A stretch of DNA of 64,000 nucleotides. It comes from a virus (taxonomy: Duplodnaviria; Caudoviricetes). A program made the translations under genes and the position numbers. Positions 4,837 to 43,353 of the stretch are shown here, piece by piece. Under the pieces are notes generated by a model. The model saw nothing but the letters and a program-made list of their open reading frames with translations, searched no databases and had not been told where the DNA came from. Numbering within the stretch: position 1 is the stretch's first letter; the number at the start of each line of letters is the position of its first letter. The stretch lies in IMG/VR virus record IMGVR_UViG_3300032030_000007, positions 32,001 through 96,000 of that record; one strand, given 5' to 3'.

Positions 4837-6524
4837 TTAATAATCTAAATTTAACATCTCCCATTTATCTTTTTCAGTTACACTATATTGTTTTGATTCT
4901 ATTAATGCATCTATATACATTTCAAATGCTTCTTTAAAATTGCTTATTGAACCATTAGGAAATACTTCATAAATACCATCATAAAATTCTTCTCTCCAAG
5001 CAGTCATTGGACGATACCAAATATCAACCCAAACATCAGTTTCAAATTCAGTGTCACAAGTAACATGAAACTTATCAGGTTCAGAATATCCTGTGCCACA
5101 ACTACAATTTGGTCTTAGATGCTTAATAAATTTAATAGATGTTATTTTCATATATTTTTATATTTAATTTGAATATATATATCGTAATCAATTTCTTTGT
5201 AATCTTCGGGACGATCTTTCATATTTTGCAATATATCTTGTAAATTTCTTGAACTATAATAAAAATCAGGTCTACTTAAATTACCACCAATGAATTTTTT
5301 TGTATAATCATTATATGGCATAATTAAAAACATTGGGAATTTTAAAACATCAGGCTGAGATATTGTCATCAATCGTTTTTCATAGAATTCTGGTTCATTA
5401 GTCCAACCTGCAGCAAAATCACAATGCCAATAACCCTGTCCTTCTAATCCACGACCATTTGCAACAAGAACTTTATCATATTCTTTAATTTGATTAAATC
5501 CAACTTCTTTATAGATTAATTCATATTGATCTTCATCATAAGTTTTAAACATTGTACCATCATCAAAATAATATTCAGTCCAATAATAATATTCATCATA
5601 TCGCCCGCTATCATCAATATCTGACATACGAACTGCTTTATTAATACGACCAAATACTTGATGATCCTTTTTAAGTCTTACAATATCACCAATCTGAAAT
5701 CTATCATTTCTATAATCCATAACTATTCAAATTTAATTATTTCTTTATCTAATATTAAATTCATAAAATCTTTTCTATAACACCAATATCTAATATCTTT
5801 CCAAAAACACCATTCTTCAAAACCTTCTTCAACTCTCCAATTTTCTGGTTTATTTATATCATCAGGATATATATGTTGTTCTAAATAACCAATTCCAAAC
5901 CACCATTTATTATGTTTATAATTTAGAAAACATATTGGCTCATATTCCTTAGGTGGATTATCATTGTCTCTTTTAATCCAAGTTAGCTTATATGTATTTT
6001 TTATCTGTTTCATTGAATATTGGCTTGACATTCTTTATATTGACCCATTGACAGAATTTTCCAAATGTATCATGTATTGCAACTTTTGGAAGATATTCAT
6101 TAATGATTAGACAAAAACATATCTTACCTTTATGTTTTACCATCTTAAACTCATTTCCATTAGCATCAGCAAAAGAAAACGAATTATCATCAGGCATTTT
6201 CTTTAATATGTTTTTTGATTGATTAATGTAATGAGATGGCAACATTGATAACATAGCTGTATGTTCATCAATAGATTTATTGTCTAATTTACGAGCTAAA
6301 TATCTTTTGCCTTTATGCTCCCATTCTTCATCTGTTTCTGCAAACTGTTTATTTACAATCATACAAGCATTCTGATAAGTGACAATAGTCATGTCAGAAT
6401 CATCATATTCATAAACACGTCTATCATCACCATCTTTCCAAGGAGACATTTGTAATAGATATTTATCCATTACTTTATATATGTTTCCAGTGTTATTAGA
6501 TTGCAAATATGTACTATTATCCAT
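4837..6524 (-). CDS. Four tandem hypothetical proteins (4837-5151, 5148-5720, 5723-6031, 5988-6524)
   Basis: Abutting or overlapping co-oriented ORFs with no recognisable motifs. Confidence 0.6.
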
Positions 6525-8132: not shown

Positions 8133-10991
8133 TTAACCTACTTGTGGAATTACATAGCCTTGACATGGACAATATTGATCACAATCACAGTGTGGATAGT
8201 ATGTCTTTTCATTACAAGAACATGTATCAACTTTTGACTGACATAAGTGAGCTGTGCAATTACCTACATTTGTATTACATGTACATGCATCATATGAAGG
8301 ACATACTGTATTATATGTGTTACAGTCACATTGACATGAATCTTTTACTGTTGTATTATGTGTGTTACAATCGCATTGACACGAATCTTTTACTGTTGTT
8401 CCTTGTGTGTTACAGTCACAGTTACAGCCAGTTCTTGCATTTGAACAGTGTCCTCCACAGTTCGAACATTGTGTATAACAGTTACATGAGTCAGAACAGT
8501 GTCCAGCACAATTTGAACATTGGGTATAACAGTTACATGAATCATTACAGTGTCCAGCACAGTTTGAACATTGGGTATAACAGTTACATGAATCAGAACA
8601 GTGTCCAGCACAGTTTGAGCATTGGGTATAACAGTTACATGAATCATTACAGTGTCCTCCACAATTTGAGCATTGAGTATAACAGTTACAAGAATCTCCA
8701 CAGTGTCCAGCACAATTTGAACATTGGGTATAACAGTTACATGAATCATTACAATCTGGAGAACATCCTACAACATTACAATCACAGCTACATACATCAT
8801 TACAAGAACAACCTACATATCCTCTATCTGTACAGTCGGGATCGCAAGTAGCATCGCATATGCATTTACGCTCTGCATTACAAAAACAAACACAACCACC
8901 TTCATAATTGTAATCATGCGTTAAACAATCATCATTTGTTACTGCATTGCAATCACATCCGCATGGATCATGACCAGTACAATCACATGAACAATCGCTA
9001 TGACTAGCACACTGTTCTCTATAATCTATACATTTCCAATTCGCATGTTCTCCATTACAACTAGAATTATTGTACTGATCATAAGGTAAACAATTATGAC
9101 CACATGTTTTATATCTACAAGAATCACCTGATCCTGATGTTTGTGAATCACAATAACAGTGCCAATCTTTACAATCAGCACATTCTGCAGTGCAGGAACC
9201 ATTATAATGATTATCAGCACATGTATTAGAATAACAATAACCACTACTATAATTATTTTCTTTACATTCACAAGATTGTGTATGACAAGTACATGCCGCA
9301 TATCCATGGCATCCGCATCCTGTCCAACTTTCGCATAAACAATATCTTGGGTCATCCTTATAATATGATTTACATGTACTATATTGTGAATTATTACATC
9401 CATCACCATCACAAGTACAATAAGTTCCATCATTATTACAATCACAATAACAGTCATCTTTATATGTACGTGTATGATTATTGCAATCGCATTGACATGA
9501 ATCTTTAGTTGTACGAGTATGATTATTACAATCACATTGACAAGAGTCCTTCGTTGTTGTATTATATGTATTGCAATCACATTGACATGAATCTTTTACT
9601 GTTGTTCCTTGTGTGTTACAGTCACAGTTACATGCACTTGTTGTATTAGAACAATGACCAGCACAGTTCGAACATTGTGTATAACAGTTACATGAATCAT
9701 TACAGTGTCCAGCGCAGTTTGAACATTGAGTATAACAGTTACAAGAATCATTACAGTGTCCAGAACATGTGCTATCATTATTACAGATACAGTCCGCACA
9801 TTTTGTATCACACGTATTATTTTGGTTACAGTCGCATACACATACGACATGTGATGCACATGCTGTACCATAAGCAGCACAGTGTTTATCACATGGTGAT
9901 GTGCTACCGCTTATTTCTTGTCTTACAAATGTTGTATTGACATGACATTGACATTTATCATATTGGTTACAGTCACAATAACAATATATGTCATCTTCGA
10001 CAATAGTAACATCTTTTATTGTACCTGCATTACCAGTCATTCTAAATGATACAGAACTAGAAGTATTGTTTGCTGTAGTTTTTGTTACTGTAATTCTGTC
10101 TGCATTACCTGACATAGGAGATACAGTATAGTTGTTTGAGCTTAAATTAGAAATTGTATATGATGTGTTACCTATCAATGACACATCTATGCCAACAGAC
10201 GAATTTGCTGCATTTACAATACCTGATTTTTCTAATGACAATATTATATCGTTAGGATGTGGATTAGCTCCTTGAGATACAGACACAGTAATAGATGTAT
10301 CATTCTTCTTTTCTTTAAATATAATATTTCCGCTTCTTGCAGCTCCAGCATTACCTTGTACCGAAACAACAACTGATTTAGATCCAGCTCTGTCTTCAGA
10401 TTTACTTAGTGCTACCCATGCAGGTTTGCTTACTAATGTCCATCCTGTGTATGATTTGATTTTAAGCGTCTGAGTTGCAGGAGCATCATACCCATATTCA
10501 TATTGATTATAATATGGAACTAATCTAATATAACCAGCATTATCTCCAGAAGTTACACCATCATTATGTTGATAGTAATAAACCTTGATAAAGTGAGAAC
10601 CTGCAGTAGGAACAGTAATATTTATTATATCATCTGTTGTACCTGACATTTTCTTCAATAATGGGTTTTCATCTGTTGTATCTAATTTACATATACCAAG
10701 AAAATCATTTGGACTTTCTGAACTAACAATTAAATCTAACTGTATTACTTGATTATTAGTATATGTCTTAAAGTTAACAAATGCAATATTGGGTGTTCCT
10801 TCTCCTCGTCCAGCTAACTTATAATAAAATTTATTATTTTTTGTTACGACTGTAGTAGTACCGACAACAGTACCTGATTCATAAAGCCAAGATTCTTCAG
10901 TTAATGTTTTTTGTATACCATAATCGAAAGATAATGATGTTGGTGCAATATTAAACTTAAAAAACCCTCCTAATATACGTCTTCTTAACAT
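8133..10991 (-). CDS. 952-aa protein: N-terminal beta-rich and BACON-like domains plus ~610-aa Cys-rich repeat region
   Basis: BACON-like stretch (WTLVSKPAWV...NAGAARSGNIIF...VSVSQG); more than 100 Cys in CxCDCN and CxDSCNCYTQCSNCxGH repeats. Confidence 0.85.
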   Translation of the reverse strand: MLRRRILGGFFKFNIAPTSLSFDYGIQKTLTEESWLYESGTVVGTTTVVTKNNKFYYKLAGRGEGTPNIAFVNFKTYTNNQVIQLDLIVSSESPNDFLGICKLDTTDENPLLKKMSGTTDDIINITVPTAGSHFIKVYYYQHNDGVTSGDNAGYIRLVPYYNQYEYGYDAPATQTLKIKSYTGWTLVSKPAWVALSKSEDRAGSKSVVVSVQGNAGAARSGNIIFKEKKNDTSITVSVSQGANPHPNDIILSLEKSGIVNAANSSVGIDVSLIGNTSYTISNLSSNNYTVSPMSGNADRITVTKTTANNTSSSVSFRMTGNAGTIKDVTIVEDDIYCYCDCNQYDKCQCHVNTTFVRQEISGSTSPCDKHCAAYGTACASHVVCVCDCNQNNTCDTKCADCICNNDSTCSGHCNDSCNCYTQCSNCAGHCNDSCNCYTQCSNCAGHCSNTTSACNCDCNTQGTTVKDSCQCDCNTYNTTTKDSCQCDCNNHTRTTKDSCQCDCNNHTRTYKDDCYCDCNNDGTYCTCDGDGCNNSQYSTCKSYYKDDPRYCLCESWTGCGCHGYAACTCHTQSCECKENNYSSGYCYSNTCADNHYNGSCTAECADCKDWHCYCDSQTSGSGDSCRYKTCGHNCLPYDQYNNSSCNGEHANWKCIDYREQCASHSDCSCDCTGHDPCGCDCNAVTNDDCLTHDYNYEGGCVCFCNAERKCICDATCDPDCTDRGYVGCSCNDVCSCDCNVVGCSPDCNDSCNCYTQCSNCAGHCGDSCNCYTQCSNCGGHCNDSCNCYTQCSNCAGHCSDSCNCYTQCSNCAGHCNDSCNCYTQCSNCAGHCSDSCNCYTQCSNCGGHCSNARTGCNCDCNTQGTTVKDSCQCDCNTHNTTVKDSCQCDCNTYNTVCPSYDACTCNTNVGNCTAHLCQSKVDTCSCNEKTYYPHCDCDQYCPCQGYVIPQVG
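8448..8753 (-). repeat. Six tandem 51-nt coding repeats (C[NGS]DSCNCYTQCSNC[AG]GH)
   Basis: Read directly; two more units at 9654-9755, and 45-nt CxCDCN...KDS repeats follow both blocks. Confidence 0.95.
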
Positions 10992-11019: not shown

Positions 11020-12546
11020 TTATTTTAATCCTAACCAAATTAAAATATTATTAAAGAATCCACTAGTTTCTTCTTTTTCTATTTTTTCAACTTTATCATT
11101 GCATTGACATGTACTTTGTTTACAATTACATTTCTGTTGTTGATTATTTTGATTTTGTTGATTAATTCTATTTTGTCTATTTCTATTTACATTATTTCTC
11201 CACCTTCTATACATATCTAATACACCACGATGAGCTTTTCTCATTTCCCATTCTTTAATCCATATATTACAATTACGAAGGTCATGACACATCTTGGCTC
11301 TAATACATGATGGCTTAATTGGACAATCATTACATATATCGTAATCTTCTACATAATCTTGGAATTTTCTAATTTCTGTCATGTCTTTCATTTCAGGATT
11401 ATCTACATGACCCCAGAAATGATCTTCAGAATAGTGTTCACAAACTCCAATATCACCTTGTGTACCAATTACAACAGCTTGTCCATGATCAATCATACAA
11501 TGCGTTGCACGTACATATGTTCCACGATCACGACCATGTAAATATCCATAATGATCTAATACTTCATCAATTTCTCTTAATTTAGTATATAATAATTCAT
11601 TTTCTTCTGCAGTTCTAGGATTATCGTCATCTTCAAATATTGGCCAACAATATGGGGCAATATTTTTATGATTACCAAATCGTGTATAAAGCTCTTTAAT
11701 CAATTTTTTAAGATTTTCAGCATTTTCAACACAAGTATTCATACGAATAGATATGTTCATACCCCAATCAGCCATCATTTGAATATTGTCCATAACAATC
11801 TTATATGGGCTTTTACCTTTTACATTTTTATAATTCTTAATCTTATTGTATTCTTCTTCAGTGCCATCAAGAGTGATTTGACCAGATCTCAAATGCCATA
11901 AATCACGATATTTGTCTAATTTTTCTTTTTTAAATAAAAAACCATTTGTAGTCATACTAGATGCATAATTAAATCCGGCGTCTTTAACTATTTGGCAAAT
12001 AATATCTATACAATGTTCTCCAACTAATGGTTCACCACCAAACCAACGTAATTGAATTTCACGTCCGTTTTTCATAGCGTTTTTAACAATCCAATCACCA
12101 ACTTTTCTTGCTGTTTCTGCAGTCATTGGTTTTTGTGGACGTCCTGCTTCATAACAATATGAACATCTTGCGTTACAAGCCATTGTTGAAAATATTGTAA
12201 ATTCATAAATACGACCTGATTTAAGATATGATTCATTCTCACAACTTGGACGACCATTTAACTTTAATTTTTCTTGAGCTGCGTGTTCATCATAATTTTC
12301 ATTTACTAAGAAATAATTATTCCAAAGCCATTGAACATAGTCAACATTAAGATCATCATATATCTTATTCCATTGTTCATTAGGAATCCATATAAATGAA
12401 CGTGTTAATTCATTATGAATAGCTTTACCGTTATCAACATCTTCAATAACAAGGTATTTCATTAAACGTACTGATTGATTTTCATCTCTTGTGTTTTGCC
12501 CAAGAAATTGTAAATACTTTTGATTTGATTTTCTAATTATATTCAT
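11020..12546 (-). CDS. Radical SAM/SPASM-domain maturase
   Basis: CNARCSYC (CxxxCxxC), WFGGEP, TTNG, C-terminal HC..GDIGVC..CNDCPIKPSC...C SPASM pattern, ~100-aa N-terminal extension. Confidence 0.92.
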   Translation of the reverse strand: MNIIRKSNQKYLQFLGQNTRDENQSVRLMKYLVIEDVDNGKAIHNELTRSFIWIPNEQWNKIYDDLNVDYVQWLWNNYFLVNENYDEHAAQEKLKLNGRPSCENESYLKSGRIYEFTIFSTMACNARCSYCYEAGRPQKPMTAETARKVGDWIVKNAMKNGREIQLRWFGGEPLVGEHCIDIICQIVKDAGFNYASSMTTNGFLFKKEKLDKYRDLWHLRSGQITLDGTEEEYNKIKNYKNVKGKSPYKIVMDNIQMMADWGMNISIRMNTCVENAENLKKLIKELYTRFGNHKNIAPYCWPIFEDDDNPRTAEENELLYTKLREIDEVLDHYGYLHGRDRGTYVRATHCMIDHGQAVVIGTQGDIGVCEHYSEDHFWGHVDNPEMKDMTEIRKFQDYVEDYDICNDCPIKPSCIRAKMCHDLRNCNIWIKEWEMRKAHRGVLDMYRRWRNNVNRNRQNRINQQNQNNQQQKCNCKQSTCQCNDKVEKIEKEETSGFFNNILIWLGLK

Positions 12547-12748: not shown

Positions 12749-13657
12749 TCAACCCTTATTAATATCAATAACTACAGGTAATCCTTTTCGTTTATATTTT
12801 GTTCGTCTTATACGGCCAATAACATCATCAACAGTATGATAAGTTACTTTATCATTATTTACATCATATTTCTTATGTAGTTCATCCATTGCAATCCGAT
12901 ATGCTTCTGGATGTTTTCCTCGATATTCAAGATATGTCTGAATGATATCATCAACTTTCTTATAAGCATCTACATTTTTATCTTTAGCAAATGCTGGAGC
13001 AATCTGCCCCATGTCACCAAGATCATTAACACCATTACCATCTGTTGGACGAATACCTAATGCATAATCAAGAGCTTGTACTTTATTAGTGTTTAATACT
13101 CCAGATTCATTTTGATAATAATCTCTAATATATTGAGCTAACTCATAAACTTCATGTTTCCAAAGACCTCCAATTGGATTTAAATCTGCAACATCTCCAT
13201 GAATTGTAAAGAATCCAAGATAATGCTCAGTAAGATTATCAGTATCCATTACTAATCCCTTGAAATAATTTGCAAGATCATAAAGATATATCATACGAAG
13301 TCTAGCCTTAATATTTCCCTGTCCAATAGTTGTTGGAAGATGACGTTGAGAACATACACCTTTCATAAGAATAAACTCATGCTGTAAATTCTCAGTCCAA
13401 TATTGTCCTTCTTTACAGAATGCTTTCATACAAGCATTAGCTGAATTATTTTCATCAATACTATTTGATGTACATGGAAGACTTACACCAAAAAATTTCA
13501 AATCAGGGTTTCTTCTTTCAACTTCTGAACAAATAGCAGCAGTTACAGTAGAATCAATTCCACCAGAAATACCAAGAATCATTGCCCAAAGATTATTATC
13601 TTCAAGATACTTCTGAGTTTCTTGCACCATTGTTTCAAAAACTTTTGCGTAATTCAT
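12749..13657 (-). CDS. nadE: NH3-dependent NAD+ synthetase
   Basis: GISGGIDS, GNIKARLRM, TDNLTEHYLGFFTIHGD, LNPIGGLWK; no glutaminase domain. Confidence 0.95.
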   Translation of the reverse strand: MNYAKVFETMVQETQKYLEDNNLWAMILGISGGIDSTVTAAICSEVERRNPDLKFFGVSLPCTSNSIDENNSANACMKAFCKEGQYWTENLQHEFILMKGVCSQRHLPTTIGQGNIKARLRMIYLYDLANYFKGLVMDTDNLTEHYLGFFTIHGDVADLNPIGGLWKHEVYELAQYIRDYYQNESGVLNTNKVQALDYALGIRPTDGNGVNDLGDMGQIAPAFAKDKNVDAYKKVDDIIQTYLEYRGKHPEAYRIAMDELHKKYDVNNDKVTYHTVDDVIGRIRRTKYKRKGLPVVIDINKG

Positions 13658-13678
13658 ACTTTATTCTTTTTATTAATT

Positions 13679-13810
13679 TTATTTTAATTTTTCTGTATAT
13701 CTAAACGGATAATGACAATGATTGCACTTAAATACTTCACCCTCTTCATCAATAGCTTCATCAAGAGTAAATGAAGTTTCTTTACCACATTTTGGACATT
13801 TTATTTTCAT
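13679..13810 (-). CDS. 43-aa zinc-ribbon protein (below ORF-track cutoff)
   Basis: MKIKCPKCGKETSFTLDEAIDEEGEVFKCNHCHYPFRYTEKLK; two CxxC; ATGA overlap with upstream gene. Confidence 0.7.
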   Translation of the reverse strand: MKIKCPKCGKETSFTLDEAIDEEGEVFKCNHCHYPFRYTEKLK

Positions 13811-14334
13811 ACGTTATAATATTTAATAATGTTTTCAATTACATACCACCAACATACACCTTCAGTACAAGACCAAAGAAGTGTTCCAAGAAAATGGGCA
13901 ATTTTATTATCAGTAAACCCGTTATAATAATTTACATACATATTTCTGACTCTTATTGCATTAATCAAAATTAAAATGCAAATAATAAAAAATATAATAT
14001 TCATAATTTAATAAGTTGCTTTAAAATCAATACCATTATTTGGAAGATACTTACAATACCAATAATTATATCCGTTGTCTTCAATATGTTTGTATACTTT
14101 AACTTTAGGATTATAGTCTAATTGTATGATAGATCCAATTTTTGGTTTATTTGGTGTCTTTTTAATAATCTGTTCATTAATGCATTCTTTTTCATAAACA
14201 AATATATCTTTATCATCAATTAAATATTCTGTAATATTATGACCAGATCTAATCAATTTAAGCATTCGTTGTGCTAAATCATTTTTATCTGTACCTAGCC
14301 AACTTAAAATCGTAGATTTTGTTATCATATTCAA
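13807..14334 (-). CDS. Two hypothetical proteins (13807-14004 membrane-like; 14008-14334)
   Basis: Packed between pncB and nadE. Confidence 0.6.
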
Positions 14335-15584
14335 TTAATATATTTTAATCCATCTTCACCAGGTTCTCCTTTTGGATCTCCATGGTTTAATGAGATAGGA
14401 ATATTCAGTTCATAACATGCATGATTGAACTCCTGATTATCTCCCATATGTTTTCCAAAATCATCAGAAATCTTAATTGTAAGATACCAAGACTGATTAG
14501 AATTCATACGGCAACGAGACATCTTCATAACGATATTCTCTGCATCATATTTTGTTCCATCAGGAGCATATACATCACATGTAAGATTTGTTCCAATTCC
14601 AAATGAACACTTGATTCCTCTTTCCTTACAATATTGTAAGATCTTAACAGCTTTTGGAAAATCAAGTGCATTAGAGAATACGATTGTTTTTGTATGATAA
14701 TCAATTCCTTTATTTATATAGAAATTAATTGTCTTATCAGTAAATTCATATTCATCTCCTGAATCCTGACGAACACCATCAAAAAGTTTAGCCTGTTTTA
14801 ATGAGAAGTTCTTGAAGAACACATCTGTTGTGTATGTATCTGAAAGAGCAATACCAAGATCTCCATCATATACATCTACCCAGTTTTCAAGAGCTATATA
14901 ATTTGCAGACTTATATCCATACTGAGCACCATGGAACATAAACCACTCGTGAGGGTGAGTACCAATTGGCTTCATATCATACTTCATTGCAAAATGTACG
15001 TTTGAAGTACCTACACAAGTCTTAGAATTTTGTTTCAAGTATTCACAAACCTTATCTTGAACTTCATAATTGAAACGGCGGCGTGTTCCAAATTCTGAAA
15101 ATAGCATTCCCATAGAATTCGCAAGATTAACCTTTGCTTCAAGCTTAGACATTGTAAGCTCCCAGTTAATAGGTTTATCTTCATTATTTACCTCAGGAAT
15201 AGCATACATACAAGGAATTTCATACAAAGAAGCCTTATAGCATTTATCTGTTACATCCATACAAAGTACACCTTCATCATCAAGATATACTCTAATCTTA
15301 TTAAATTCAAATCGGAATGAATACAACCACTCCCAATAATACTGTGCAATAAAATCTACCCTGTGTGAAGTAAGTAACCAATTAAGCTCAGGAATTGTAA
15401 GTTTAGTATTATTACAAATATCCCTAAGCATCATTTTAAACTTCTTCAGAAATTTTGGAGTACGTTTAATTTTATTCCTATCCTTAAATGTAAATGTACA
15501 TTCAGCATCAGGAAATTTCTTCATATAAGCATACGATGTAGTAAACTTATATAGATCTGTATCAAGTATTGAAAATTTCATCAT
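14331..15584 (-). CDS. pncB: Nicotinate phosphoribosyltransferase
   Basis: LDTDLYKFT, EFGTRRR, GTSNV, PIGTHPHEW, ALSDTYT, GVRQDSGD, FGIGTNLT, KISDDFGK. Confidence 0.96.
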   Translation of the reverse strand: MMKFSILDTDLYKFTTSYAYMKKFPDAECTFTFKDRNKIKRTPKFLKKFKMMLRDICNNTKLTIPELNWLLTSHRVDFIAQYYWEWLYSFRFEFNKIRVYLDDEGVLCMDVTDKCYKASLYEIPCMYAIPEVNNEDKPINWELTMSKLEAKVNLANSMGMLFSEFGTRRRFNYEVQDKVCEYLKQNSKTCVGTSNVHFAMKYDMKPIGTHPHEWFMFHGAQYGYKSANYIALENWVDVYDGDLGIALSDTYTTDVFFKNFSLKQAKLFDGVRQDSGDEYEFTDKTINFYINKGIDYHTKTIVFSNALDFPKAVKILQYCKERGIKCSFGIGTNLTCDVYAPDGTKYDAENIVMKMSRCRMNSNQSWYLTIKISDDFGKHMGDNQEFNHACYELNIPISLNHGDPKGEPGEDGLKYIN

Positions 15585-15652
15585 ATTATTTAATATATAC
15601 TTTATGAATATTTAAAGCTTATTTTTATAGTTAATATATACTTTATGAATAT

Positions 15653-16366
15653 TTAAATTGCTTTAATATTGTCATGAGAATTAATGAAATCATTAAGAGC
15701 AGTACCTCCATCAATTGAAACAGTTCCATTCATAAGAACACTTATATTGAACTTCTTCCAGTGATTCATAAGGTTCTTCATAGTTTCCATTACACAATAA
15801 TCACCAGCAATACCGCATACTACAATATTGTTATTGATAATTCTGCAACCTGAAGAAGATTCACAATTTGCAAAATAACAGTTCTTTACATGAGGTGGAT
15901 CATTAGGATGCAAGTGATGGAATGTTGCAAGATGCTCAAACGCGCCATACTCTTCACGGTCAACTACTGTACCCTTATCAACAACAGTAAATGGTATTCG
16001 CATTTCAATAAGACCATCATAAAGTTCTTTAGCAATCTTTTCGCCATCAGATCCCTGAACACAATGCGCAGGCCATTGACCACCATTTTCCTTAAATGAC
16101 ATATGTTTCTTTGGATGATGATCACGAGTCAAAATAACCTGGTTAATCTTATTGCGATTTGCTTTGATGTAATCCAAAATTGGCTTATTGATATTTTCTC
16201 CACCAGGTACATAAAGAGCTCCATTTGGATCACCAAAATCAAATTGGTCATCTACAATAATAACACTAATTTGATTATCCAATTTAGAACCAGTGTTCTT
16301 TACTTTAAACTTCTTTGCATTGTTCTTACGAACATCATTCTTAATGTTTTTCTTGTCTGTATACAT
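15653..16366 (-). CDS. pncA: Nicotinamidase (isochorismatase family)
   Basis: IIVDDQFDF, GALYVPG, TRDHHP, WPAHCV, KG, GIAGDYCV catalytic motifs; adjacent to pncB. Confidence 0.93.
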   Translation of the reverse strand: MYTDKKNIKNDVRKNNAKKFKVKNTGSKLDNQISVIIVDDQFDFGDPNGALYVPGGENINKPILDYIKANRNKINQVILTRDHHPKKHMSFKENGGQWPAHCVQGSDGEKIAKELYDGLIEMRIPFTVVDKGTVVDREEYGAFEHLATFHHLHPNDPPHVKNCYFANCESSSGCRIINNNIVVCGIAGDYCVMETMKNLMNHWKKFNISVLMNGTVSIDGGTALNDFINSHDNIKAI

Positions 16367-23405: not shown

Positions 23406-23506
23406 ATCTTTATATTTTATTTGTTTGATAATTTAATATAGATCATTATCAAAAAAATTCAAATATAATAAAAAAATGGAACTATAAATTAATCTAATTC
23501 TATTTG

Positions 23507-23577
23507 TAATCCCAATAGGAATCAAACCTATACCTATTCTTTAGGGGAGAATTATGCATTCATTACACCATAGGATC
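23507..23577 (-). tRNA. tRNA-Arg(CCT), degenerate or possibly pseudo
   Basis: Cloverleaf GATCCTA/TGGGATT, ATTCT-CCCCTAA-AGAAT; has C33 and T-loop TTTGATT. Confidence 0.65.
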
Positions 23578-24054: not shown

Positions 24055-24059
24055 ATATG

Positions 24060-24241
24060 TAGGGATGATGGGATTCGAACCCACGCTATGTTTAAGGTGG
24101 TACATAAAACGCGCTTCCTTACTCGAGTTTCACCTCTTTTCAGTGCTTCCGCAAACTTAACTCCTGGATTTCTCCTTCAAGACATTTTCCACCACGACAC
24201 TCGTTTTATCGCGCTCTGTCCAAGTTCTGAGCTACATCCCT
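24060..24241 (-). ncRNA. 182-nt tRNA-like RNA (ACG-type loop) with ~105-nt structured insertion in the variable region
   Basis: AGGGATG/CATCCCT, GCTC/GAGC D arm, CGATA-AAACGAG-TGTCG, GTGGG-TTCGAAT-CCCAT. Confidence 0.75.
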
Positions 24242-24250
24242 ATATATAAG

Positions 24251-24326
24251 TGACCGCAGAGGGATTCGAACCCCCGACTTCTTCGTTCGTAGCGAAGTGC
24301 TCTAAAATCCACTGAACTATGCGGCC
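24251..24326 (-). tRNA. tRNA-Arg(ACG)
   Basis: CTTCG-CTACGAA-CGAAG anticodon arm, canonical cloverleaf. Confidence 0.95.
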
Positions 24327-24333
24327 AATAATG

Positions 24334-24408
24334 TACTCCGGATGGGACTCCAACCCATGACCTGAATATTAGAAGTATCCTGCTCTATTGCAACTGAGCT
24401 ACCGGAGC
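24334..24408 (-). tRNA. tRNA-Arg(TCT)
   Basis: GGATA-CTTCTAA-TATTC; atypical T-loop TTGGAGT. Confidence 0.9.
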
Positions 24409-24415
24409 ATAATTG

Positions 24416-24491
24416 TGACCCTGGAGGGATTCGAACCCCCAACCTGAAGGGTAGAAGCCAACTGTTCTAAATTCCGTTGAACTACAGGGCC
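24416..24491 (-). tRNA. tRNA-Arg(TCT), second copy
   Basis: GTTGG-CTTCTAC-CCTTC with two U.U mismatches; other arms canonical. Confidence 0.85.
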
Positions 24492-24717: not shown

Positions 24718-24718
24718 G

Positions 24719-24790
24719 TACCCCCGGTAGGATTCGAACCCACATCTTATGATCCGTAGTCACACGTTCTTTCCTTTGAACTACGGGGGT
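24719..24790 (-). tRNA. tRNA-Arg(ACG), second copy
   Basis: ACCCCCG/CGGGGGT; TGTGA-CTACGGA-TCATA. Confidence 0.93.
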
Positions 24791-24980: not shown

Positions 24981-26159
24981 TTAAAATCCAATTCTAACTG
25001 ATTTAAATTCTTCTTCAGTTGTTAATTCTTTATAAGTTCCATTTCCATATTCAATATAACCAAAGTTCTTATACAAATTATCTTTTACATCATCGTTATA
25101 CCATTCATACATATCTTTCAGAGGTGGCATTTCCAATAGATGCTTAAGATTATGTTTTTGAATACACCAGCCATCATATATTAACTTTGTATAAATATTT
25201 AATTTCCATTTTTCATTTGACATAAACCATGCAGATTTTGGCCAATTCCCGTTAACATACATATCGTACATTGAATCTAAGCGTTTTAAATAAATCCAAA
25301 AACGACAGAATAGCCAATGACATAATTCTTCTCTAACTTTTGCTGACCAATAATCTTTATCTCCAGGTCCTACACCAATAATAAATGTTGGATTAGATTG
25401 TGTATATGTTGATCTACTAGATATAAATACTCCACATGCATATTCTTGTTTTTCAATCCATGCCCATATATGTCTATTACCACCATTCTTATTGCCATCA
25501 ATACGAAGTTTCTTAATCTTTATATTTGCTTCCTTCATAAATGGAAGGTTATTTATCTGTTCAATTACTTGTTCCTTTGTCATAATCTCTTTATTTTATT
25601 CATTTGAAATTACAACTTGAAATTTTTCCAAGAGGCCACCACCTAATTTATAATTTCAGGAAACTTTTACTTACGATACTTATCTGGTCCCATATCTTTA
25701 TGCAATTATTTCAATAAACTCATAAGAATCATCAGACTCATCAAATGTTCCACAATTATTATACTGTTCAATATATGCATTCTTTACATATACTGTATCA
25801 TCCTGACCGTAACAATCTTGTTCCATATATCCTTTCACATGAACTTCAACTGACATATTATCATTTAGTCCATTATTTGAAAGTTCCTCGAGTCTATTAA
25901 TAAACTCACGTAATGTCATCCAATCTTTCATAATCTAAAATAAAATATCAAATAAATCGTAACCTAACTCATACTCATCATCATAAGCAGATATTTGAAG
26001 TTTTGCTTTCAGTTTCTCCTCATTGTCATAAATCTCAATATATCTTCCATTATCACCAAGATGACAGAAAATAATACCAAAACCAAAAATAAACTGATTA
26101 CCTGGTTGGAGATTCAAAACTTCTCTTAACTTACTTAATGTATCTGAACTAAAACTCAT
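24981..26159 (-). CDS. Hypothetical proteins 24981-25583, 25698-25931, 25935-26159
   Basis: Co-oriented ORFs between the candidate attenuator and the tRNA cluster. Confidence 0.65.
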
Positions 26160-26222
26160 ATTTTATATAATTTAAATATTATATAAATAATATAGATTAC
26201 TTTATAAAAAATTCAATAAATC

Positions 26223-26266
26223 AAAGAACAAAAATAGCAGAAATTCGTATGTGAACTCCTGCTATT
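26223..26266 (-). terminator. Intrinsic terminator of candidate attenuator
   Basis: AATAGCAGGAGTTC-ACATAC-GAATTTCTGCTATT followed by TTTGTTCTTT. Confidence 0.85.
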
Positions 26267-26302
26267 CAAATATGCATTACTGTTTAGTTTATATCTTTAA
26301 GT

Positions 26303-26374
26303 TCACATAACAATTTTGTAGAATCGTCTAACTCTACGTCTATTGTCTATATTTATGTAAACTATGTTTTTCAT
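26303..26374 (-). promoter_or_regulatory. Arg-rich leader peptide MKNIVYINIDNRRRVRRFYKIVM of a candidate translation-coupled attenuator
   Basis: Codons AGA CGT AGA GTT AGA CGA; the stop lies in TATGTGAACTT, complementary to GAGTTCACATA inside the terminator. Confidence 0.72.
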
Positions 26375-31817: not shown

Positions 31818-33753
31818 TTACCAAAGTCTACGATCTACTCTATTATCTATAAGCCACTCAATATGCTCTTTTAAGTCACGTTCTCTCATTTCTTTTTTGA
31901 TCTCAATATCAGGATCAAATCTATTATATTCATATGCATGACATGTAGTTCTTCCGAACTTATAATTTCTCATTGCGCCGTCTCTGCCACAATTTTCATA
32001 AAACCGGCAATCAAAACAAGGATTATCCATAAATTATTAAAGTTTAATATCAATTTTTAAATTTAACTTAGGATCTATTTCAACTTCAATACAATCAAAT
32101 CCACAAAATCCATTCAAATACTTATGAATATTTTCTTTCCACCAAATTCCAAACATCATACAGTCACGTAATAATGCAGATTCCCAAGTTGGAGTATGAT
32201 AACCAGGATATGAATAATTTTCATTTCTATAGATTTCGAGTCCAGAATACAAATCAGCGTTCTTACTAAAGAATACAAAATTCTCACCAAACCATCTAAA
32301 TGGCTGTTTACGCTCTTCATCAGTCAAATAACCTTTACGAAATGGATTAGAACGAAATCCCTTACCATTTTCAAAATAACTATCAATATTCTGTGTCATA
32401 ATTAATATAATTTAATATAAACATTTTCCATAATATTTCATAAATATATTGTGTGCTAATATTTCTGCAGATAATCCTCTTAAATTTGTATTTTGTATTA
32501 CCCAATTCTTGAGGATTACATGCCTTGATTTTATATATGATTCACTTAACATTAAACAAATAATTTTAATTATTATTCATAATTTTCATAATCTTGCCAA
32601 TCATAATGTTTTCCAAAAATATGAATCATAATTGGATAATATACTTTATATTCCCAAAATCCCTTACACAAAATATAATACTTGAAATATTGCCAATAAG
32701 AACATTCATACCATGCACGAATTTTTCTCCCAAGTTTAGTATACATAATAAACCTTTCAGTTGGTCTTTCTCCAAGTTTAAAATCAGGTTCAGACCATTG
32801 AATCATATTGTATTTCCAAAGCCAATTCATAACTTCAGGAGTATGATCTCTTTTCCACCTACTTTCTGTGCTACGATTATACATTGTACAAGAACTAAAC
32901 TTATGAGCAGTTTCTCCCTTACGAACAAAATATTTCTTAAGCCACATAATATTTCTTATTTATTATAATTCTACTTTATATTAATAATCCCAAGTTTCAG
33001 GTCTCGCATTGTCGTAATCTTCAAGATATCTGTTTTCCATTATCTTATCTTCAATAGCAAAATTAACAGCATCTTTATATTCCTTTGAATTGGGAGCATA
33101 TCCTGAACACCAGTCAGCATCAACATCATAAATCTTTTTTGTTTTTGTTGATATAATACGAACTCCATTAAAATGAACTGTTACGTTCTTCTCAAAATGA
33201 TAAGTCTTATAATTGAATTTCTCCTTAAAGAATCGTTTCATTGGACGTGGTGCGATAACACAAATAAAATCTGCGCCATCCTCAATAGCATTACGATATC
33301 CAATTGTAAGATAAACTTCCTTTCGTTTTCCTACCTCACGATTAACACTGCTGTTTGAACGAACAATTACAAAATCACCAACATTAATAGTATTCATATT
33401 AATAAATATTTAATTCGTGTGCTAATGAATGTTTCTTTAAACATAGTTTTTTCCAAATCTCCATACTTATTGGTATAGTAAATGGAATAATGAACTCCAA
33501 TAAATTATATAAAAGTTTTTTCCTACTCATTGGTCATATCCATAATAAGTTCTGAATTCTTAAACTTCTTCTGAAGCCAAGTAATACCGAGAAGCTCGAA
33601 GATTTTCTCCTTAGTAAAATTCTTAAGATACATAAACAGAATTCCAAGAATAATGAAACCGATAAAATTATAAGAATTAACGTTTTCATTAAGAATCATT
33701 ACCATTGCCATTACTGACAGAATGTAAAACGAAATGGAATTTAAAATCTTCAT
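31818..33753 (-). CDS. Five hypothetical proteins (31818-32030, 32037-32399, 32573-32947, 32981-33397, 33523-33753)
   Basis: Co-oriented array after promoter 33785-33812. Confidence 0.6.
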
Positions 33754-38601: not shown

Positions 38602-39096
38602 TTAATCGTTCTCCTTTTTGTTTTCATCTAAATTCAATTTCTTCTGTACAGGTAATTTTCCTTTGTCTCTCAAATATGTTAATCTTGAACAAAATTCTTG
38701 CGTAGTCAATACAGTTTCAGACTTCTTATTCTTACCCATAGAATGAGTTAATGTTGCTCCTTTTGAAGCTTTTAATGCAGATTGAAATTTACCATTTTCA
38801 TATAATGCATTATAAGCTCTATTCAATAGATCTTGATATTCATCTGAATCTCTTTTAATTGGCTTTCCTCTCCAATATAATGTCTGTTTCTCTTGCCAAT
38901 TTTTATTTCTACCTTTTTTCTTTGCAGCATATCCAACCAAACTGCATACATATTCTTGCATATCCTTTGATTCAAATTTTAATCCTTGTAAGAATCCTTC
39001 CATAGAATTACATTGAACTCCATCTATAATAAATGGGTGAGGAGAGAAGTTACTTAATGCACCCGCAGGATATCCATTTTTACTTCCTATATCCAT
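38602..39096 (-). CDS. NADAR-family protein (T4 gp30.3-like)
   Basis: LSNFSPHPF.IDG...SMEGFLQGLKF, TLYWRG, LTHSMG, TVLT..EF. Confidence 0.8.
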   Translation of the reverse strand: MDIGSKNGYPAGALSNFSPHPFIIDGVQCNSMEGFLQGLKFESKDMQEYVCSLVGYAAKKKGRNKNWQEKQTLYWRGKPIKRDSDEYQDLLNRAYNALYENGKFQSALKASKGATLTHSMGKNKKSETVLTTQEFCSRLTYLRDKGKLPVQKKLNLDENKKEND

Positions 39097-43084: not shown

Positions 43085-43353
43085 AATATATTTTTATATT
43101 CCTTTTCTATTTAGTATAAAATAGATTTTTATGTAAATTATTTTTATTTTTATAAGACAAAAATACTTGAGTATGTTAGTATATTATCCCATACCCAAGC
43201 CTATATTGCCTCTATATATTACTTAGGTAAAATTAGTAATTTCGTATATATAAAAATAACCATTTTACATAAATATAATAGGATGCTTTTCAAATATTAT
43301 ATGTGTATTTTACAAATAATATATTCAAAATAATGAAAAATTTTTCACAATTT

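Follow-up and report, generated by a model that had tools for sequence, protein, structure and literature searches.

A predicted arginine-codon attenuator precedes the tRNA-Arg gene block of an uncultured jumbo phage

Analysis of a 64,000-nucleotide stretch of viral DNA (the window; positions 32,001 to 96,000 of IMG/VR record IMGVR_UViG_3300032030_000007) indicates, with good confidence, that a block of tRNA-Arg genes is preceded by an attenuator that is real, conserved and very probably functional, a judgement made in the absence of expression data. With the same confidence, the element is interpreted as a ribosome-driven attenuator of the trp/his type, in which the speed of Arg-codon decoding would regulate transcription of the tRNA-Arg block of the phage and make tRNA supply subject to feedback. 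The interpretation is drawn from sequence, with no transcript-end, footprint or reporter data behind it.

The window has a G+C content of 28%, is read in genetic code 11 and carries nearly all of its genes on the minus strand, among them genes for DnaK, IF-1, tmRNA and an anaerobic ribonucleotide reductase. Its relatives come from gut metagenome contigs and from IMG/VR records, and one of them (G002) extends to 376 kb, is rated 98% complete and has 66 tRNA/tmRNA genes; the source of the window is thus an uncultured gut jumbo phage. A-rich gene starts that lack Shine-Dalgarno sequences, together with a boxA-like motif shared with Bacteroidota rRNA operons, are the grounds for inferring a Bacteroidota host. 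Around 20 related loci were found using neighbouring ORFs and the conserved RNAs of the tRNA block as queries; an exact-pattern search of viral contigs with the helix pair of the window gave no match, and the annotated phages that were searched returned only tRNA matches. One sheep-gut RNA run contained 0.55 of the region's words, a result at the level of contigs only, in which strand, ends and level are not shown.

The leader ORF (26303-26374, minus strand) comprises 23 codons, with Arg at codons 12, 13, 14, 16 and 17, i.e. five Arg residues in six codons (26341-26324). At least five Arg in six codons were encountered in the leader alone among 906 short ORFs of the window, and in none of 5349 short ORFs in the 376-kb relative. 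Its start context falls within the top 1% of ATGs, as judged by a model trained on the genes of G002. An acidic 18-codon stretch in an alternative frame of the leader was dropped, being without a start codon.

Four segments on the minus strand make up the predicted switch. The antiterminator strand (segment 2; 26309-26299) spans the last codons and the stop codon of the leader, starting 14 nt past the last Arg codon, and can form 11 bp (-14.4 kcal/mol) with segment 3 (26258-26248), which is the upper 5' arm and loop of an intrinsic terminator with a T-rich tail (26225-26267). The terminator hairpin itself (26267-26232) has 15 pairs, four of them G-C, with a calculated stability of -18.0 kcal/mol. 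Segment 1 (26354-26363; codons 4-7) is a near copy of the upper arm of the terminator, and in minimum free energy folds serves as a protector, forming 10 bp with segment 2 when the leader is untranslated; the pairing is kept through two substitutions in relatives. The attenuator region as a whole (181 nt) folds at -40 kcal/mol (z -5.6), and folding gives the 1:2, 2:3 and 3:4 layout seen in trp and his leaders. The Arg-run ORF, the 11-bp alternative helix, the T-tailed terminator and their trp/his-type geometry had been proposed in a first-pass annotation made from the sequence alone; all were found to be present, and the protector was added here as a fourth segment.

That annotation had also proposed that a ribosome stalled on the Arg codons leaves the antiterminator strand free. 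Folding with a ribosome mask of 13 nt from the A site, and with the nascent RNA ending at the terminator loop, agreed with this, with the antiterminator forming at a probability of 1.00 when any of the Arg codons occupies the A site and of approximately 0.4 from codon 21 to the stop. The window leader thus switches 3-4 codons past the last Arg codon, and in the other sequence types described below the drop occurs 2-6 codons past it. Once the full hairpin has been made, the terminator of the window type wins at equilibrium for every ribosome position, and hence the switch must be kinetic, whereas the second type and several of the sibling leaders show a shift even in the equilibrium. In trp attenuation, it is established that the choice is made during transcription. 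The full leader in the absence of ribosomes folds as 1:2 plus 3:4, which is the off state.

According to the proposed mechanism, the leader would be transcribed from an upstream promoter and then translated. With enough charged tRNA-Arg, a ribosome at codon 21 or later would cover segment 2 and the terminator would form; with slow Arg codons, a ribosome stalled at codons 12-17 would leave segment 2 to capture the emerging upper arm and loop of the terminator, and polymerase would continue. The read-through RNA would carry a boxA-like motif, at which Nus factors may be loaded for passage through the untranslated tRNA genes, and the newly made tRNA-Arg would lift the stall, closing a negative feedback loop. 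The output of the attenuator would add to basal or early expression from a promoter located after the terminator (P2, below). The Arg codons of the nine leaders that were tallied (AGA 24, CGA 9, CGT 6, CGC 4 and AGG 1; these are related copies and not independent) can all be read by the TCT, ACG and CCT tRNAs of the block, in the case of ACG if the anticodon is edited to inosine, a modification that is well established. The first-pass suggestion that the phage senses loss of functional Arg-tRNA stands in so far as tRNA loss, whether through host nucleases, decay or phage demand, is inferred to be the likelier trigger. Arginine starvation, which was part of the same suggestion, is less coherent, since extra tRNA relieves a shortage of tRNA and not one of arginine. 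This agrees with studies of phage tRNAs that act against anticodon nucleases (PMC10264068, PMC11555353).

The putative targets lie 1.4-2.7 kb downstream of the attenuator on the same strand. ARAGORN identified five tRNA genes in the window, every one of them Arg, in the order tRNA-Arg(ACG) (24718-24790), tRNA-Arg(TCT) (24415-24491), tRNA-Arg(TCT) (24333-24408), tRNA-Arg(ACG) (24250-24326) and, as the last gene of the block, tRNA-Arg(CCT) (23506-23577). The first four had been noted in the first-pass annotation, which did not name the fifth. Its statement that no terminator intervenes also held, in that no terminator-like site was found on the minus strand of the window between the attenuator and the tRNAs. 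In relatives, tRNA-Arg(CCT) is followed by a terminator (8081-8112 in L004), and the next promoter motif of the window is at 23462. A conserved hairpin with a T-rich tail (25650-25590, minus strand) accompanies a 94-aa ORF in relatives; the ORF has been deleted in the window and the hairpin kept. Because the L004 counterpart of this hairpin (5502-5518) is terminator-like by score, a weak stop inside the block is possible.

Three ORFs of unknown function (24981-26159, minus strand; 74, 77 and 200 aa) separate the attenuator from the tRNA genes. None belongs to a PHROG or Pfam family, and the 74-aa ORF has no relatives among viral contigs. Between leader and tRNAs, related loci have from 1 to 6 ORFs over 401-1960 nt, with the window ORFs replaced or absent and with unrelated sets in G002 and G003, while the Arg-tRNA block stays constant; the ORFs are variable passengers on this comparison of sequences, and the leader is tied to the tRNAs. 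The first genes past the terminator are ORFs in all Arg units, which would be expected if the attenuator controlled the intervening protein genes with the tRNAs as mere bystanders. However, this idea merits scarcely any credence, given that the ORFs are unrelated between relatives, are not Arg-related and lack known families, and that sibling leaders elsewhere in these genomes lead directly into tRNA genes.

Several further RNAs were observed within the block, all on the minus strand. A tRNA-like RNA (24058-24242) possesses acceptor, D and T arms; its 7-nt anticodon loop, which contains ACG, is atypical, and a structured extra arm extends over approximately 110 nt. It was missed by both ARAGORN and Rfam, and is conserved in 10 relatives (77-98%), with a different anticodon loop in L017 and L021; it could be a decoy or a processed RNA. 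A non-coding element of around 115 nt (24716-24598), with paired ends, a T-loop-like sequence and no Rfam match, is 95-98% identical in 11 relatives, always directly after tRNA-Arg(ACG). A second non-coding element, of 180 nt (24975-24795), is base-paired at its ends and carries a T-arm-like hairpin close to the 5' end; it is shared (93% identical) with L001 only. Finally, a tRNA-like sequence with an irregular anticodon arm (24054-23972; Rfam 46.7 bits), the L017 copy of which is called as Ser(GGA) with a 4-nt insertion by ARAGORN, is probably a pseudo-tRNA.

A leader is present in every related locus in which the Arg-tRNA block occurs and the sequence extends sufficiently far upstream. Five sequence types were distinguished, namely the window type (L003, L004, L017 and L021), a second type with a 24-codon leader (L005-L012 and L022-L025), and one type each in L001, G002 and G003. 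The helices are nearly invariant within types and cannot be aligned between them, such that covariation could not be counted pair by pair across types; since they differ completely between types, whole helices have been replaced together. In every type, a cluster of 3-5 Arg codons that includes an AGA CGA pair is followed, 9-15 nt after the last Arg codon, by a strand complementary to the arm and loop of that type's own terminator, and a protector helix (1:2) is predicted in all five. The layout for L001 was read from sequence and folds, apart from the pairing computation used for the other types. Relatives therefore keep the Arg run, the competing helices and the linkage to tRNA-Arg, as had been anticipated from the window. 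Within the window type, the leader ORF has accumulated zero indels and six synonymous third-position changes, one of them at an Arg codon, whereas the spacer past the leader stop takes indels; the same pattern holds in the second type. Within the window type, a G-to-A change in one arm of the terminator leaves both the terminator and the antiterminator intact. No leader was apparent in the parts examined of the more distant tRNA arrays L029, L030 and L032, which are fragments.

When leaders and terminators were exchanged between types in a swap matrix, a leader's own terminator type proved to be its best partner in four of the five types. The Arg leader of L001 was not significant in the narrow swap test but gave z -3.0 with a wider window, while the second leader of L001, also not significant in the narrow test, remained weak with the wider one (z -1.3). 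Among 178 terminators from four related sequences, six of the seven leader terminators ranked in the top 10 for upstream complementarity, with z values of -3 to -4.5 for these six against a terminator median of 0.1; three non-leader terminators in G002 have high upstream complementarity without a plausible leader. These values bear on whether the locus might be no more than an independent small-peptide gene followed by an ordinary terminator, with the pairing arising by chance in AT-rich DNA. At a single locus the pairing is indeed only moderately rare (5 of 300 shuffles were as good), and P2 would account for downstream expression. Nevertheless, ordinary terminators do not show such complementarity, the leader peptides are not conserved in sequence outside the Arg run, and leader isotypes match the tRNA blocks behind them, all of which leaves chance pairing strongly disfavoured and with next to nothing to recommend it.

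Evidence of this isotype matching came from a scan, made blind, for units composed of a short ORF and a terminator, which located two further leader units in G002, heading both halves of the main tRNA array (hairpins at 327922 and 338638). Such sibling leaders are known from relatives only and not from the window. Block A alone contains Cys, Glu, Phe, Gly, His, Ile, Pro and Ser tRNAs, block B alone contains Ala, Asp, Lys, Asn, Thr, Trp and Tyr tRNAs, and Leu, Met, Gln and Val tRNAs are found in both; Arg tRNAs are in neither, being located 235 kb away behind the Arg leader. Counted over the sensing part of each leader, the ratio of residues specific to block A to those specific to block B is 17:1 for leader A and 0:17 for leader B (Fisher p 4e-9). 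For 24/25 and 23/23 of the sensing codons, a tRNA of the matching isotype is encoded in the leader's own block, so that the three leaders of G002 cover all 20 amino acids. In L033, a more distant relative, block A holds Arg and Trp tRNAs and leader A contains Arg and Trp (14:1 versus 4:14, p 5e-5), while 14 of 17 were matched in the B-type leader of L001 (p 0.001). The sibling leaders run straight into tRNA genes and have no Arg runs. Units of this kind, with other amino acids matched to other isotype clusters, had been envisaged in the first-pass annotation and were found in the relatives G002 and L033. Isotype matching is the strongest evidence for the leaders as translated sensors of the tRNAs behind them, translation itself being inferred, and the Arg leader is inferred to be one of a set that jointly covers the tRNA blocks of the phage.

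The sibling leaders are also informative as to what is sensed. Arg-X-Arg is a known macrolide arrest motif, the AGA CGA pair is common to all five types at the nucleotide level, and a ribosome stalled anywhere before codon 19 would leave segment 2 free; it could feasibly be argued that the leader responds to general or drug-induced stalling, or that a protein binds the AGA-CGA sequence, without any sensing of Arg-tRNA. This appears highly unlikely, since sibling leaders that lack Arg runs mirror their own tRNA blocks, synonymous changes of Arg codons do occur, and a well-placed ATG precedes the AGA CGA pair in frame in every case. Taken with the matched leaders, the reading as sensors of tRNA can be extended to a more general model, which is favoured on balance but held less firmly than the Arg attenuator itself. 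In this model, the phages would survey the tRNA pool codon by codon and replace on demand whichever set has been depleted by a host defence or by the phage's own demand, using the block behind the matching leader; in the Arg unit, only the read-through transcript would also acquire a boxA antitermination signal.

Other features of the tRNA arrays of relatives were recorded. A leader-like unit in G004 (near 43183, minus strand, in L063), with a 39-codon ORF and an antiterminator/terminator pair of -20.8 kcal/mol, lacks the P2 motif; downstream of it come a protein gene and, beyond that, a mixed tRNA array. The unit was left out as support on account of the protein gene and the missing P2. A tRNA with a CTA anticodon, resembling an amber suppressor, ends tRNA block B (G002 347128-347199, in L052; L015 near 12428; L029 815-892), and the genes of those phages are open in code 11. 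At the start of block B, L001 (5200-5620) and G002 (338790-339040) share a conserved non-coding stretch of 250-400 nt, an unidentified RNA, that separates a boxA-like motif from tRNA-Gln(TTG).

The first-pass annotation had cautioned that a promoter just downstream of the terminator could bypass it. The caveat is well founded at the level of motif, and the promoter is stronger than had been thought. The motif, designated P2 (26187-26216, minus strand), is a strong-consensus phage promoter motif scoring 22 bits, versus 9.5 at the 99th percentile of shuffled sequence, and represents the strong form of a genome-wide promoter found in 33 of 159 upstream regions in G002. It is conserved after the terminator in all 14 of the tRNA-block units scored, 15-40 nt past the hairpin, and extra promoter-like sites were seen by eye before the tRNAs in G002 and G003. 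The tRNAs can consequently be made without the leader, and the attenuator probably boosts rather than gates their expression. P2 is read here as supplying tRNA at a basal level or early on, with the attenuator adding a boost, of unknown size, in response to demand. The spacing of P2, judged by eye, does not fit the Bacteroidota housekeeping promoter consensus (PMC9723704). A phage-encoded 405-aa sigma-70-like protein (G002 243230-244447; L047 3230-4447) is a candidate reader of the genome-wide motif.

Support for a promoter upstream of the leader is weaker. The candidate, P1 (26414-26426, minus strand), is a T-rich motif ending TAAAT, and is weak by motif score in the window. Motifs of this type precede 9 of 33 large opposite-strand genes, which are probably late, compared with 0 of 33 P2-type genes and approximately 10% of shuffles; they are found upstream of 8 of 15 leaders, whose upstream regions score lower for the P2 class. 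These are weak hints, derived from motifs, that the leader may be driven by a late promoter. With regard to co-transcription, the stretch from leader to tRNAs has no terminator within it, a weak P1 motif and a strong P2. The attenuator might be real but minor or vestigial, and of little consequence for tRNA output, with P2 supplying nearly all of the tRNA-Arg precursor; P2 has the top consensus score after every unit scored, and the P1 motifs are weaker. This remains a possibility, albeit an unlikely one, since leader content tracks block content across the phages and the helices have been rebuilt in five types, which together indicate selection on output, and since indels accumulate in the spacers and are absent from the ORF and helices.

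The boxA-like motif (26221-26229, minus strand) lies between the terminator and P2, is imperfect at its 3' end and has a function that is only inferred. In eight of nine Arg units the core of the motif is located between the terminator and the P2 start, so that in these units only read-through RNA has it, whereas in the A and B units it follows P2; the Arg unit of L001 has no boxA core. Along with the P1-type motifs, this placement lessens the bypass objection but does not dispose of it. The core overlaps the -35 element of P2 in some types, and L021 has a 22-nt insertion between the motif and P2, with none between the motif and the terminator. Five of the six plus-strand boxA-like copies in G002 are at tRNA blocks, and the sixth is just before the tmRNA gene. 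The boxA-like 17-mer of L001, of which the window copy matches the 9-nt core only, occurs overwhelmingly in Bacteroidota, where 49 of 65 loci with enough sequence have one common downstream block; in the one locus checked, it lies between spacer tRNAs (tRNA-Ala) and 23S rRNA. In rrn operons, boxA recruits NusB/E and is situated between the spacer tRNAs and 23S rRNA (PMC12360218). The phage motif before tRNA blocks resembles this antitermination system in matching the Bacteroidota rrn 17-mer, but differs in following an attenuator and, in the window, in retaining only the 9-nt core, and there are no Nus binding data.

Comparison with known systems places the Arg unit with the trpL, hisL, pheL, leuL, thrL, ilvL and pheM (before pheST) leaders, with which it shares a short ORF with a run of cognate codons. 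It meets every feature of the trpL/hisL type that can be assessed from sequence, including the 1:2, 2:3 and 3:4 segments, the intrinsic terminator and a kinetic switch, although co-transcription of leader and target, translation and the response to charged tRNA are inferred. The sibling leaders additionally resemble ilvL and thrL in their apparent multivalent sensing. The hisL mechanism is summarised in PMC12360218, and leader-peptide attenuators have been inferred in a Bacteroidota species (PMC9723704). The phage unit departs from these in that the target is a block of tRNA genes rather than enzymes or synthetases, in being phage-encoded and sensing Arg, in having a strong promoter after the terminator, and in that the product itself would relieve the stall. 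We know of no classical terminator-type attenuator for Arg.

The rbfL leader of Staphylococcus aureus and the enterobacterial speFL are similar in that Arg-codon pausing in a short upstream ORF controls a downstream gene. However, rbfL, which responds to tRNA-Arg(UCU) supply, is a repressive leader that works through occlusion of a ribosome-binding site (PMC13009471), while speFL acts through Rho and ornithine (PMC12360218); neither has an antiterminator/terminator pair or controls tRNA genes. T-box riboswitches also read tRNA status and control a terminator, and a few have been reported before tRNA genes in Firmicutes, but they bind uncharged tRNA directly, cannot report tRNA destruction and need no ORF. 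No Rfam match at gathering score was obtained for the T-box stem I, specifier or T-box bulge, and the Arg unit was on these grounds ruled out as a T-box. The tRNA arrays of the T5-like phage SP15 (PMC11555353) and of jumbo phages (PMC7824862) replace host tRNAs cut by anticodon nucleases, and are comparable as counter-defence in which the level of expression matters; they differ in having a strong constitutive promoter. Conditional control is not described in either paper, and the terms 'attenuat' and 'leader' are absent from PMC7824862. A genome-wide survey of attenuators makes no mention of phages or arginine (PMC2965389). No attenuator acting on tRNA genes, in phages or in bacteria, came up in the literature searched, which left out most subscription papers; within these limits, the mechanism is known and its use on tRNA genes is not described, in line with the earlier remark that no described leader-peptide attenuator of phage tRNA genes was known.

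For 50 years it has been an open question why phages carry tRNA genes (PMC10264068). If the genes serve codon compensation, their expression should be constant; if they replace destroyed tRNAs, expression on demand should be of benefit. A sensor that switches on missing tRNAs would favour the latter view and render it testable with a 150-nt reporter. Leader-peptide attenuation would be extended to tRNA genes, to phages and to arginine, as a product-feedback loop without any protein regulator, and the odd isotype blocks of tRNA genes in these genomes would be explained. That Arg has a unit of its own suggests that tRNA-Arg is a special target in the host, and the leaders could serve as isotype-specific reporters for anticodon nucleases.

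Elsewhere in the window, the tmRNA gene (17582-17199, minus strand) is preceded by a GIY-YIG/NUMOD3-like ORF (18449-17583), and since a short copy of the tmRNA 5' sequence lies upstream of that ORF (approximately 18405-18375), insertion of a homing endonuclease with target duplication is suggested. A 952-aa ORF with Cys-rich tandem repeats (8133-10991, minus strand) adjoins a 508-aa ORF with the appearance of a radical-SAM-like protein (11020-12546). NAD-related genes at 12749-16366 and 38602-39096 (minus strand), identified by look or by Pfam in relatives as NAD synthetase-like, nicotinate phosphoribosyltransferase, nicotinamidase and NADAR-like Phage_30_3, are a possible NAD-rebuilding counter-defence set. 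Lastly, a terminator-like hairpin that is conserved ahead of the gene for the anaerobic ribonucleotide reductase (43200-43165, minus strand; G002 75878) has some upstream complementarity (z -2.2 in G002), and is possibly another cis-regulator.
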